Assembly: GCA_903874955.1 (NCBI GenBank)
Contig: CAIQTY010000030.1
Span: 7,846 to 71,845 of the forward strand
DNA: 64,000 nt
Origin: an uncultured Alphaproteobacteria bacterium
GTDB taxonomy: Bacteria > Pseudomonadota > Alphaproteobacteria > Paracaedibacterales > CAITNM01
Direction: 5' to 3'
Positions 55,347 through 60,102 of the stretch are shown here, piece after piece. The notes beneath the pieces were generated by a model. The model saw only the letters and a list, made by a program, of their open reading frames with translations. It did no database searches and was not told the DNA's origin. Numbering within the stretch: position 1 is the first letter of the stretch; each line of letters begins with the position of its first letter. The position numbers were made by a program, and so were the translations under genes.

Positions 55347-55420
55347 GGCCGGGTGGCAGAATGGTTATGCAGAGGATTGCAAATCCTTTGATGTCGGTTC
55401 GATTCCGGTCCCGGCCTCCA
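55347..55420 (+). tRNA. tRNA-Cys (anticodon GCA)
   Basis: Acceptor GGCCGGG/CCCGGCC plus U-CCA, anticodon loop TTGCAAA, T-loop TTCGATT. Length 74 nt. Confidence 0.9.
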
Positions 55421-56272: not shown

Positions 56273-56479
56273 AAATAAAAAACCACCTAAATTAATAATT
56301 TTACAATATATATTGATTATTTAAATTTTATTAACAGTAAAATAAATAAAAATTAATTAAATTTAATTTTCTCTTTTATGAAAACCTGATTCTCAATATT
56401 AAGAAAAATCCTTTTAACCATTATTTAATATTTTTGGGTTACAACAGAATATAGGTATTACTCTAAGTAGGTTTTAAAT

Positions 56480-58723
56480 ATGAAATCGTTTAAATACTCC
56501 CTCTTTCTTGGTGCCGCATATGCACTATTTAATTCGACCTTAAGTATGGCAAGTGCTGCAACGGCATCTACATTAGCTCCAGGGGCATCTATTACCCCTA
56601 CACCTTTGCCTGCAGCGGCCCCAACTACTTCAGTAGTAGGAGTCAGTGATAACGCTAAAGGAAATGCAAAAGCAGGAGAAGTTGCACCGGCTCCGGGGAC
56701 AGCTCCAACAGTGGCTCCAGGGGCATCTATTGCCCCTACACCTTTGCCTGCAGCGGCCCCAACTACTTCAGTAGAAGCAAATGCGGCAGCGACAGCACCT
56801 ACACCTACTGCTGTGCAAACAGCAACACCAACCACAGTGGCATCTATTCCTGCTCCTGCTCCTGCTCCTGCTCCTGCATCAGCTCCTTTGGCTGCGCCTG
56901 CAGATGCAAACCTAGCAACCTCAGCTGCGGCACCGGGGGCATCTCCTGCTACGGCTCCCGCCACAACATTGGCAGCAGCTCCAGCTCCAGCTCCAGCTCC
57001 AGCTGTAGATCTAAACCTAGCACCGGCACCGGGAACATCTCCTGCTACGGCTCCCACCACAACATTGGCAGCAGCGGCAGCTCCAACTGCAGATCTAAAC
57101 CTAGCACTGGCACCGGCGACTGTTGCTCCTGCTCCTGCATCAGCTCCTTTGGCTGCACCTGCAGATGCAAACCTAGCAGCGGCAGCGGCAGCTCCAACTG
57201 CAGATCTAAACCTAGCAACCTCAGCTGCGGCACCGGGGACATCTCCTGCCCCTGCCATAGCATTGGCAGCAGCTCCAGCTCCAGCTCCAGCTCCAGCTCC
57301 AGCTCCAGCTCCAGCTCCAGCTGTAGATCTAAACCCAACAACGGCACCGGCAACACCCACAACCACACAAGTAGAACCAGGCGTCAGCTCTAAAGCTGTT
57401 GCCGAAGCTGAAAAAGCCGCTACCCAAGCAACAGTAAATACCTCTGAGGTTTTGTCCACAACACCAAGCGCTAATTCTGCAGCAAAAGCTGAGGAATTAA
57501 TTAATGCTGTACGGGCGGCAAATAACCAATCAAACCAAGTTACAGCGACTGATGCTAATGCAGTAGCTCCAGGCACAGCAGGAGCTTCTCCTCTAGGTCT
57601 TGCTCAGCCATTAGTTGCTGCTCCTCAGCCTGAAACCACTCTTGCTAGCACTCCTGAAGCAAGCGTATTACCAACGCAGGTTAACGCTCAACCAACATTT
57701 GATCAAAGTGCATTACTAGCCGCTCAAGCAGGCGTATTACCAACACAGGTTAACGCTCAACCAACACTTGATCAAAGTGCATTACTAGCTCCTCAACAGT
57801 TAGCCGCAGCTCCAGGCTTAGTGAACGTTGATCCTAATTCAACAGGCTTAGTAGGAGTCTCTCCTATAGGTCTTGCTCCTCAACCATTAGTTGCAGCTCC
57901 GGGCGCAGTTGATCAAAACGCTCTAGCTCCTCAACAGTTAGCCGCAGCTCCAGGCGTTGATCAAAATGCATTACTAGCTCCTCAACCATTAGTTGCAGCT
58001 CCAGGCGCAGTTGATCAAAACGCTCTAGCGCCTCAACCAGGCGTAGCACAGACGCAGGCTCCTAACGGTCTACCGAACGATAAAACCTTTGCAGCTCTCA
58101 TACTAGCTGCAGATGGCAGTGTAAACATGGATCTTACGCAAAACCTTGATATTAACAAGGAAGGAGCCAGCAGTGAACCTAACACTAATGTTGTCGTTGA
58201 TTATGCGTCTTCTAGTGAACAGACAAAAGCTTTAGAAAAAGTGGCAGAAGCTGAAAAAGAAAAAGCTAAAATAGAAGAAGAAAAAGCAAAAGAAGAAGAA
58301 AAAAGGAAACAAGCCGAAGAAGAAGAAAAAAAAAGAAAACAAGCCGAAGAAGAAGCAGAACGGTCAAAAAAACTGACTGAAACCATTACAGTAGGAACTC
58401 CTGCAGGACCTGCTTTAGATGAAAAAAAAGAACTAGAAAAAGCTGAAAAAGTTAAAGAAGCATCTGAAGTAGCAAAAGTCGAAGAGAAAAAAGAAGAAGC
58501 CGCTGCAGAACATCATGACGCTGCCCCTGATTCAAAAGATAAAGACGGACACAGTAAGGCAGATGAACATCATGACGCTGATTCAAAAGATAAAAAAGAT
58601 GAACATCATGAAGCCGCTGCAGAACATCACGACGCTGATTCAAAAGATAAGCATGAAGATGAACATCATGAAGCCGCTGCAGAACATCACGACGCTGATT
58701 CAAAAGATAAAAAAAATAAATAA
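56480..58723 (+). CDS. secreted/surface highly repetitive Ala/Pro/Thr-rich protein with Lys/Glu-rich coiled-coil segment and His/Asp-rich C-terminal repeats
   Basis: Signal-like MKSFKYSLFLGAAYALFNSTLSMASA. Nested repeats include (AP)n, AAPTADLNLA, a 23-aa VLPTQVNAQPT.DQSALLA repeat and a 20-aa DEHHEAAAEHHDADSKDK repeat. A strong terminator follows. Visibly GC-richer than its surroundings. Confidence 0.7.
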   Translation: MKSFKYSLFLGAAYALFNSTLSMASAATASTLAPGASITPTPLPAAAPTTSVVGVSDNAKGNAKAGEVAPAPGTAPTVAPGASIAPTPLPAAAPTTSVEANAAATAPTPTAVQTATPTTVASIPAPAPAPAPASAPLAAPADANLATSAAAPGASPATAPATTLAAAPAPAPAPAVDLNLAPAPGTSPATAPTTTLAAAAAPTADLNLALAPATVAPAPASAPLAAPADANLAAAAAAPTADLNLATSAAAPGTSPAPAIALAAAPAPAPAPAPAPAPAPAVDLNPTTAPATPTTTQVEPGVSSKAVAEAEKAATQATVNTSEVLSTTPSANSAAKAEELINAVRAANNQSNQVTATDANAVAPGTAGASPLGLAQPLVAAPQPETTLASTPEASVLPTQVNAQPTFDQSALLAAQAGVLPTQVNAQPTLDQSALLAPQQLAAAPGLVNVDPNSTGLVGVSPIGLAPQPLVAAPGAVDQNALAPQQLAAAPGVDQNALLAPQPLVAAPGAVDQNALAPQPGVAQTQAPNGLPNDKTFAALILAADGSVNMDLTQNLDINKEGASSEPNTNVVVDYASSSEQTKALEKVAEAEKEKAKIEEEKAKEEEKRKQAEEEEKKRKQAEEEAERSKKLTETITVGTPAGPALDEKKELEKAEKVKEASEVAKVEEKKEEAAAEHHDAAPDSKDKDGHSKADEHHDADSKDKKDEHHEAAAEHHDADSKDKHEDEHHEAAAEHHDADSKDKKNK
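57272..57319 (+). repeat. (GCTCCA)8 in-frame hexanucleotide microsatellite encoding (AP)8
   Basis: Eight perfect units counted. Shorter arrays: (GCTCCA)4 at 56978-57001 and (CCTGCT)4 at 56849-56872. Confidence 0.95.
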
Positions 58724-58754: not shown

Positions 58755-58790
58755 AAGATGCCCTTCAAAAAAGGGCATCTTTTCTATTCT
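58755..58790 (+). terminator. rho-independent terminator of the repeat-protein gene
   Basis: 11-bp perfect stem AAGATGCCCTT / AAGGGCATCTT with a 5-nt loop, followed by the T-rich tract ttctattct. Confidence 0.75.
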
Positions 58791-58839
58791 AATGTTTGTT
58801 TTTTAAGGGTAACCTAAATAAAAAGTAGAATAATTTATT

Positions 58840-59559: not shown

Positions 59560-59664
59560 ATAAAGAGGTATAAAAATATGGAACATGTAAAAAATTACCA
59601 ACCATTGCCAAGAGCTTTAGGTAGGGACTACAATCACACGAACATAAATAATAGGGAGAGACAC

Positions 59665-60006
59665 ATGTCTCATGAAAAATCAGTTAATGTTCAAGATGCT
59701 TTCTTAAACCATATCCGGAAAAATAAAACCCCACTTACAGTTTTTTTAGTAAACGGGGTTAAGCTGCAGGGAACCATCACATGGTTTGATAGCAATACCA
59801 TTCTTCTTAGAAGAGAAGGACACGCTCAGCTAATTTACAAACATGCTATTTCAACCCTAATGCCCCATGGACCAGTTAGCATTCTTGATTACCAAAATAA
59901 CGATAGGGAAGAACGCTACGCGAAACCTACACCTTCAATTCCGGATGATGACAACGAAGAGGACGAGGACGATTACGAAGAAGAGCCAGAAGAGCAAAAC
60001 AAATAA
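59665..60006 (+). CDS. hfq: RNA chaperone Hfq with acidic C-terminal extension
   Basis: [58 protein letters not shown] (Sm1/Sm2). The ATG at 59665 is preceded by AGGGAGAG. The upstream in-frame extension from 59578 is unlikely to be translated. Confidence 0.9.
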
Positions 60007-60017
60007 GCTCCAGCTCT

Positions 60018-60102
60018 TGGTGCGGTCGAGAAGACTCGAACTTCCACGGATTGCTCCACAGCGACCTCAACGCTGCGTGTCTACCAATTCCACCACGACC
60101 GC
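60018..60102 (-). tRNA. tRNA-Leu (anticodon GAG)
   Basis: The reverse complement gives GCGGTCG...CGACCGC-A-CCA, anticodon loop TTGAGGT, a long variable arm and T-loop TTCGAGT. Length 85 nt. Confidence 0.9.

Follow-up and report, generated by a model that had tools for sequence, protein, structure and literature searches.

A predicted exported, largely disordered repeat protein at the rpoH-rph locus of one genus of uncultured freshwater alphaproteobacteria

Several described kinds of bacterial protein carry long extended or disordered segments of low complexity. TonB, with its (EP)n/(KP)n rod, and TolA, with its domain II, are envelope proteins whose Pro-rich or Lys/Glu/Ala-rich spacers are extended or helical. 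The Ehrlichia tandem-repeat proteins (TRPs) TRP32, TRP47 and TRP120 and related Rickettsiales effectors are acidic, disordered and species-specific, and change quickly in repeat number and sequence. Mycobacterial Apa, a fibronectin-attachment protein (Pfam FAP), is a secreted or surface protein that combines a signal peptide with Ala/Pro-rich low-complexity sequence. For metal or pH buffering, the disordered periplasmic protein Asr of Escherichia coli and the His-rich loop of ZnuA serve as models. Here we describe a gene with features in common with each of these, found in a 64,000-nucleotide stretch of DNA (the window) from an uncultured alphaproteobacterium (contig CAIQTY010000030.1, positions 7,846 to 71,845; assembly GCA_903874955.1). 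It is a real gene of a tiny, undescribed orphan family, restricted to one genus of uncultured freshwater alphaproteobacteria, in which it occupies the position between an rpoH-like gene and rph. Its product is of a physically familiar kind, the fast-evolving repeat protein of exported type, and reveals no new mechanism.

56480..58723, plus strand: predicted exported, disordered repeat protein (P0001), 747 amino acids (aa); open reading frame (ORF), codon-position GC periodicity, syntenic orthologues

All 747 codons are open in a genome of 38% GC, and codon periodicity is strong. An earlier sequence-only reading of the window had described a 747-aa ORF composed of repeat modules, in DNA much richer in GC than its surroundings. 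All the parts it described are present, and the repeat half of the gene is 56-60% GC against 38% for the genome, with no signal of foreign origin. The high GC arises because Ala (25.7% of residues) and Pro (11.6%) are encoded by GCN and CCN codons: GC1/2/3 values are 0.69/0.56/0.22, so the excess is restricted to codon positions 1 and 2. A GC3 of 0.22, lower than the 0.30-0.38 of the neighbouring genes, rules out horizontal transfer as the source; amino acid composition suffices. The opposite strand is open over part of the same DNA.

56458..57576, minus strand: 372-aa antisense ORF, not a gene but a shadow cast by the GC-rich repeat codons; the GC3 pattern favours the plus-strand frame, and like shadows lie opposite the orthologues

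Searches with the whole protein find no match in Pfam, NCBIfam or PDB, and none in 40 related genomes; from its own genome they return only the protein itself. The view that it belongs to no known family and has no recognizable catalytic domain is upheld by the three database searches. Its orthologues are missed by whole-protein search because of compositional bias, and synteny alone revealed them. When rph was located in related genomes and the DNA upstream of it inspected, 11 of 11 same-genus genomes examined proved to have, between their rpoH-like gene and rph, an ORF of ~400-680 aa that begins with a signal peptide and runs in the same orientation. The same arrangement, with rpoH divergent, occurs in the metagenome-assembled genome (MAG) ZH-15may19-298, while other families of the order have a different gene, such as hrcA, upstream of rph. 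The family as defined here comprises P0003-P0029, P0031-P0033 and L022-L032; the cadherin-repeat protein P0030 is left out.

Profile searches give the family a narrow range. A first profile of the two conserved internal blocks described below (C and D), built with the window sequence included, matched only this genus in 62 genomes of the order from 10 families. A nine-orthologue profile recovers 17 proteins among 5.8 billion clusters; those with names are "hypothetical" and none has a Pfam domain. A HMMER profile search of 1.84 billion representative proteins yields 23 matches, including one cadherin-repeat protein that is unrelated. Scans of genome and metagenome contigs with the protein, and of the metagenome with an exact 37-nt DNA sequence, gave no further alleles, and a literature search on Holosporales, signal peptides and disordered repeats yielded nothing specific. 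Genomes of the genus are small (1.1-1.7 Mb; 1.74 Mb for the genome that holds the window). The nearest named rph is that of the freshwater MAG "Alphaproteobacteria bacterium ZH-15may19-298" (81%), followed by those of Candidatus Finniella, "Caedibacter sp. 38-128" and Holosporales MAGs. By this measure the organism is an alphaproteobacterium of Holosporales/Paracaedibacter-like type. For the genus we infer an endosymbiotic lifestyle.

The part of the protein best conserved across this family is its leader.

56480..56551, plus strand: predicted signal peptide, aa 1-24 (MKSFKYSLFLGAAYALFNSTLSMA), the segment best conserved in the family; BLAST identity to orthologues, invariant columns, AlphaFold2 (AF2) helix 2-19

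The N-terminal sequence (MKSFKYSLFLGAAYALFNSTLSMA/SA) combines a basic n-region with a hydrophobic core of 12 residues and a small-x-small motif, and signal peptidase I probably cleaves after SMA. It lacks Cys and therefore does not mark a lipoprotein; sequence inspection and a domain scan of the 747-aa protein find no lipobox, second hydrophobic segment or beta-barrel. Against eight orthologues the leader shows 65-79% identity over the first 17-19 aa in pairwise BLAST, with E-values of 4e-4 to 8e-3 under SEG filtering and, with longer N-terminal matches, 1e-5 to 1e-3 without it. Alignment columns M1, K2, K5, L8, F9, L10 and A13 are invariant, and the window protein matches the family leader consensus MK(S/I)xKYSLFLGAAS...SSLFA. 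What had earlier been called a signal-like N-terminus is thus borne out by its n-region, core, cleavage site and conservation, and the protein appears most likely to be exported by Sec.

Past the leader, the relatives share a plan: variable repeats, a helix island "PPxTLxAExRxxxAI", K-rich motifs, block C, block D and an acidic tail. The consensus of block C is (P)YAxLxFxxDGxVxLxxT...FNxK...IVVDP.

58079..58198, plus strand: block C, conserved island, aa 534-573 (DKTFAALILAADGSVNMDLTQNLDINKEGASSEPNTNVVV); profile built without the window sequence, E = 1.6e-4; predicted local distance difference test (pLDDT) 78-83
58376..58420, plus strand: block D, aa 633-647 (TETITVGTPAGPALD); aligns with the family motif xIIVxGTxDGPxVD

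Profiles for assessing the window protein were rebuilt without its own sequence and searched against 5,717 six-frame ORFs of the genome. The independent block C profile ranks the window ORF first (aa 534-573, E = 1.6e-4; runner-up 0.26), and block C is the sole internal segment with significant similarity to the orthologues. In block D, TETITVGTPAGPALD aligns with the family and G643 is nearly invariant; the short profile alone falls below significance. By eye, TTPSANSAAKAEELINAVRAAN resembles the helix island, and an independent profile of that island run over the genome ORFs gives no match. Orthology of the window protein follows from position, orientation, leader and block C together. Most relatives also carry one to three copies of a K-rich element, a basic patch followed by KLTPEQIxALKAAGAxK; where they have the KLTPEQI motif, MAFFT places the Q/P/L repeats PT(F/L)DQSALLA and VDQNALAPQ of the window protein. 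Compared with PDB, the KLTPEQI motif gives generic helix-start matches only (a designed repeat, uL4, the calmodulin N-terminus), and a reading of it as a SAP/HeH-type motif was dropped, no such entry appearing among the best 60 PDB matches.

The conserved blocks resemble one known domain at the level of motifs. In the cadherin-like/Big_9 repeats of giant adhesins (motif ...TITIxGTNDxP), the last two strands, TIVVGYDV...ETITIHGTNDGP, resemble NVVVDY...TETITVGTPAGP of the window protein, and one such protein, P0030, was drawn in by the family profile at E = 5e-6 over six repeats. Membership was rejected: hhalign gives a probability of 18%, AF2 builds no beta-sandwich, and Pfam reports no match to Cadherin_4/5 or Big_9, with PF17892 and PF17963 missing the locus at E <= 10. 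The resemblance is a lead.

Structure prediction yields little that is folded. AF2 with the family alignment gives a mean pLDDT of 47.9, and 572 of the 747 residues (~77%) score below 50; AF2 is confident of the leader helix, of aa 540-560 in block C and of two helices in the C-terminal third. The compact orthologue P0017 is likewise modelled as helices and disorder, without a beta-sandwich, and neither model contains a globular domain. On these models the protein is most likely intrinsically disordered almost throughout.

58214..58390, plus strand: predicted long Glu/Lys/Arg alpha-helix, aa 579-637; AF2 helix with pLDDT 85-97, composition, alignments
58280-58360, plus strand: 30-nt K/E units; Tandem Repeats Finder
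58421..58510, plus strand: predicted second charged helix, aa 648-677; AF2, pLDDT 72-84

Relative to compact orthologues, alignments show helix 579-637 as an insertion between blocks C and D. The sequence-only reading had predicted a Lys/Glu-rich coiled coil here; the Lys/Glu-rich helix stands, and a coiled coil is the less likely form for it. The block at aa 591-632 holds 16 E, 12 K and 3 R (31 of 42 residues E/K/R) and a single aliphatic residue, so that with no heptad core an ER/K single alpha-helix (SAH) fits better. Composition and the confident AF2 helix agree with this type, and helix 579-637 is probably an ER/K single helix; its likeness to SAH domains is an analogy of physical type, not homology.

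Such extended Lys/Glu-rich and Pro/Ala-rich segments recall TolA domain II and the TonB rod, and the protein might on that ground be a divergent TolA/TonB-type, periplasm-spanning component of energy transduction. Searches of Pfam and NCBIfam detect no TonB_C, TonB_2 or TolA C-terminal domain at E <= 10, neither exbBD nor tolQR-tolB-pal is among the neighbouring genes, and a genuine TonB_C protein is located elsewhere in the genome, beside a TonB-dependent receptor. TonB and TolA also keep an uncleaved N-terminal anchor, in contrast to the short, cleavable-type leader here. This explanation is effectively refuted; a TolA/TonB-like match, named beforehand as what would overturn the family-less status of the protein, was looked for and not found. 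The Ala/Pro-rich Apa offers a likeness of composition, and differs in that the host here is Gram-negative and the architecture past the A/P region is another; FAP has no Pfam match, the Pfam-A scan giving 0 families at E <= 10.

Most of the remaining length consists of repeats, whose classes were checked with Tandem Repeats Finder. Every class previously described was recovered.

56552..57379, plus strand: nested Ala/Pro/Thr repeats, aa 25-300 (101 Ala, 56 Pro, 38 Thr); Tandem Repeats Finder, composition; pLDDT <50 throughout
56848-56877, 56976-57004 and 57270-57322, plus strand: perfect 6-nt (AP)n arrays; Tandem Repeats Finder
56897-57075, plus strand: 96-nt unit, 1.8 copies; Tandem Repeats Finder
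57380..57619, plus strand: non-repetitive Ala/Ser/Thr/Asn linker, aa 301-380, containing TTPSANSAAKAEELINAVRAAN; visual alignment
57653..58039, plus strand: Q/P/L-rich repeats with copy numbers that vary in a second same-species assembly; Tandem Repeats Finder, assembly comparison
57653-57796, plus strand: 69-nt (23-aa) unit, 2.1 copies, 90% matches; Tandem Repeats Finder
57871-58039, plus strand: 51-nt (17-aa) unit, 3.3 copies; Tandem Repeats Finder

The A/P/T region spans ~275 aa. In the Q/P/L block the 23-aa repeat proposed earlier is correct, and the "34-aa" repeat proposed with it resolves into two 17-aa units. Equivalent positions hold entirely different expanded repeats in different species: the orthologue of genome G004 (L025:1-1890) has ~ten tandem PAEH(A/T)AV units and five 21-aa EKPAEVKAEVSKTEPAVTT units.

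Taken with the leader, these features lead us to lean, without great assurance, towards a Sec-exported, extended and largely disordered spacer or coat protein of the envelope or surface, with islands that dock to a partner. Once the leader is removed, block C and the GTxxGP strand would dock either with each other or with a conserved partner in the envelope. The (AP)n and PT-rich polyproline-like tracts and the ~59-residue ER/K helix would act as stiff extended elements, forming a periplasmic or cell-surface spacer or brush of variable length, and the acidic tail with its His pairs would add pH- or metal-dependent charge. Sequence between the islands would be free to drift, expand and contract by slippage; repeat slippage and relaxed constraint on linkers would leave even close species with almost no alignable sequence in common.

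Several observations weigh against the spacer or coat interpretation. No anchoring domain, sorting motif or partner has been identified for the protein, and its location is a prediction, the results fitting a periplasmic, a surface and a released protein alike. The role of surface fibril, adhesin or host-interaction protein suggested from the sequence is conjecture. Homology to the orthologues is weak beyond the leader and block C, pairwise BLAST giving only scraps elsewhere, and in neither the window protein nor the compact orthologue does AF2 assemble the conserved islands into a domain. By pattern search, the KKxKLTPEQIxALKAAGA motif is absent or degenerate in the window protein, so the common function of the family may depend on something that this member has lost. 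Its housekeeping neighbours (sigma factor, RNase PH, Hfq) offer no clue to function. The numbers of repeat copies derive from metagenomes assembled from short reads and may in part be artefacts.

The gene evolves far faster than its neighbour. By the Nei-Gojobori method, the ratio of nonsynonymous to synonymous substitution rates (dN/dS) in three species pairs is 0.35, 0.67 and 0.34, compared with 0.035, 0.064 and 0.029 for the adjacent rph, and its dN is 10-35x that of rph, although misaligned repeats may inflate both dN and dS of the gene. It is weakly constrained and non-neutral, under purifying selection that is weak but real. A second same-species assembly (ENA sample ERZ19525881, locus L045, scaffold_29350; ~99% nucleotide identity) differs over a shared 400 aa by three substitutions and three indels: loss of one 23-aa unit, gain of 34 aa (two 17-aa units) and loss of one 20-aa His unit. 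Each indel comprises whole repeat units and keeps the frame, being a multiple of 3 nt; together they represent either true repeat-length polymorphism or assembly noise. Rapid evolution through repeat change, as proposed from the sequence, accords with both the dN values and these indels. The L045 assembly begins inside the (AP)n repeats (L045:1-300) and has an in-frame TAG there (APAKA*SAAPAP), probably an assembly artefact of the contig end, though a broken allele would also explain it. Two of the relatives have contigs that stop within the orthologous gene, and a third has one that stops in the AT-rich spacer just upstream (L024/G012, L025/G004 and L022/G002); short-read assemblers therefore break at this locus.

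Such divergence might suggest a decaying or functionless ORF that stays open by chance in repeat-rich DNA, and the very low conservation, the loss of the K-rich motif in the window member and the lack of any detectable fold would suit that idea. It is highly improbable: the ORF is intact in every species examined, dN/dS is below 1, the leader and block C are conserved, the indels keep the frame and the gene has its own terminator.

Fast evolution is also what would be expected of a host-interaction protein, an adhesin or effector that is released or displayed at the surface, through a secretin or by shedding, and that varies as a host, probably a protist, selects against recognized variants. 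This account is possible but rather unlikely. Besides the elevated dN, it draws on repeat lengths that differ between near-identical strains, on the small genome with its Holosporales, Finniella and Caedibacter-type MAGs as nearest named relatives, on the other low-complexity exported orphans and two secretins encoded in the genome, and on K-rich KKxKxxKK patches in the relatives that resemble nuclear localization signals (NLS). The acidic, disordered, tandem-repeat make-up is that of the Ehrlichia and Anaplasma tandem-repeat effectors, which also belong to small-genome alphaproteobacteria; the Ehrlichia TRPs, however, leave the cell by type I secretion and have no Sec leader, whereas a Sec-type leader is the best-conserved part here, and no sequence similarity to them is detected. 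Moreover, dN/dS is <1 throughout, with repeats that are unalignable for a positive-selection test; Pfam and NCBIfam reveal no adhesin domain, autotransporter barrel, or type I or type IV secretion signal; the window member lacks the K-rich patch; secretins usually export folded proteins; and the endosymbiotic lifestyle of the genus is itself presumptive.

The genome encodes at least three further signal-peptide proteins with (AP)n tracts, and AP-rich tracts recur among its exported proteins. Outside the window, G000:C35:4032-7472 (minus strand) encodes a 1,147-aa signal-peptide protein of the same "grammar", assigned to no family, with a helical N-domain, G/N/F-rich repeats (GGFNGGANGGNGFQNG), an (AP)n tract of ~90 aa, long DRQKAE charged-helix repeats and FVYEQPQTVNLVPQT Q/P repeats. 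A 102-aa lipoprotein (G000:C46:20680-20985, plus strand, outside the window; lipobox LAFVGC) carries AP/His repeats (DAHAxPAPAP), and a 382-aa signal-peptide protein (G000:C42:11434-12579, plus strand, outside the window) has (AP)n tracts on either side of a ~120-aa core. The two secretins could pass Sec substrates outward. Two Wzy_C-family genes are also present and provide no evidence of a PglL-type O-oligosaccharyltransferase. A route past the periplasm, and O-glycosylation of the A/S/P tracts, are conceivable.

The C-terminal tail raises another question of function.

58505..58720, plus strand: His/Asp/Lys repeat tail, aa 676-747 (16 D, 14 H, 12 K; six HH[DE] pairs); composition, Tandem Repeats Finder
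58565-58714, plus strand: 60-nt His/Asp unit, 2.6 copies, 90% matches; Tandem Repeats Finder

A periplasmic buffer against stress or metals, in which the His-pair/Asp tail binds Zn, Ni or Cu or titrates with pH and the gene is co-regulated with the divergent heat-shock sigma gene, would explain the 14 His and 16 Asp of the 72 C-terminal residues and their six HH[DE] pairs, where the background across the long ORFs of the genome is 0.72 HH per 1,000 residues. Of the 23 other tabulated members, 7 (L022, L023, L028, P0019, P0023, P0003 and P0016) also have HH[DE] repeats in their C-terminal third, and divergence from rpoH is conserved genus-wide. Yet His pairs are missing in more than half of the family, the tail is less than 10% of the protein and leaves 500 aa of A/P and Q/P repeats unexplained, no sigma-32 promoter is identified and no metal transporter lies nearby, all of which makes a dedicated buffer decidedly unlikely. 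Asr, an exported disordered protein with a His/Lys/Ala-rich segment, is an analogy only, being ~100 aa long and giving no sequence match.

The gene is bounded by an AT-rich intergenic region and a terminator.

56273..56479, strand not assigned: AT-rich (~28% GC) divergent intergenic region from the rpoH-like gene to the target, with weak sigma-70-like sites and, ahead of the ATG, a weak GTAGG ribosome-binding site
58755..58791, plus strand: intrinsic-terminator-like hairpin, 11-bp stem and 5-nt loop, then a U-rich tract (UUUUCUAUUCU); folding

The divergent upstream gene has sigma-70 regions 2 and 4 and an RpoH-box-like KKLFFQLR, and the hairpin (58755-58781) has a dG of -16.6 kcal/mol (z = -5.08), with 0 of 200 shuffles folding equally well. 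Both the divergence from rpoH and the strong terminator of the sequence-only reading are confirmed by these features and by the U-rich tail. Downstream of the hairpin lie rph (RNase PH) and then hfq; the wider neighbourhood comprises an OEP-family (TolC-like) outer-membrane efflux protein, a rhodanese, PCMT, the sigma factor, RNase PH and Hfq. The rpoH-X-rph-hfq block, X being the repeat-protein gene, is flanked by tRNA genes at 55347-55417 (plus strand) and 60021-60102 (minus strand; Rfam tRNA, 62 and 51 bits). The Hfq ORF (59578-60006, plus strand, 142 aa) has its Sm domain at aa 38-100, preceded by a possible 37-aa N-terminal extension unless the true start is later, and ends in a ~40-aa C-terminal tail whose final ~25 aa are strongly acidic. 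In one relative (L028:1-3434, G001) a 443-aa transporter-like ORF replaces pcm, the rhodanese gene and the OEP-family (TolC-like) gene, leaving the rpoH-X-rph core as the only constant part of the synteny. In another (L026:3271-3967, G003) the PCMT gene (pcm) beside rpoH appears split into overlapping ORFs of 140 and 130 aa, by a frameshift or a sequencing error.

A bolder version of these ideas would make the protein a lineage-specific coat or effector of protist-associated bacteria, variable in repeat length, whose conserved parts would be docking motifs (a beta-hairpin of degenerate cadherin type, plus NLS-like basic patches in the majority of members) joined by an AP/QP-ER/K "ruler". We consider it unlikely. 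If it is true, the ruler of AP/QP repeats and ER/K helix would tune the distance to the host or mask the cell, and the action of an exported protein would depend nearly entirely on linear motifs and disordered spacers. Exported repeat proteins of low complexity are common but can seldom be traced, because they diverge beyond recognition; the fixed rpoH-X-rph synteny allows one such gene to be followed through a whole genus. What persists across the genus is the leader and ~40-70 residues of short islands, with new repeats between them. The locus thus provides a natural series for studying how a disordered envelope protein evolves and what its minimal functional motifs may be, and it offers a candidate surface or host-facing protein, and a strain-typing locus, for these uncultured, probably protist-associated bacteria.

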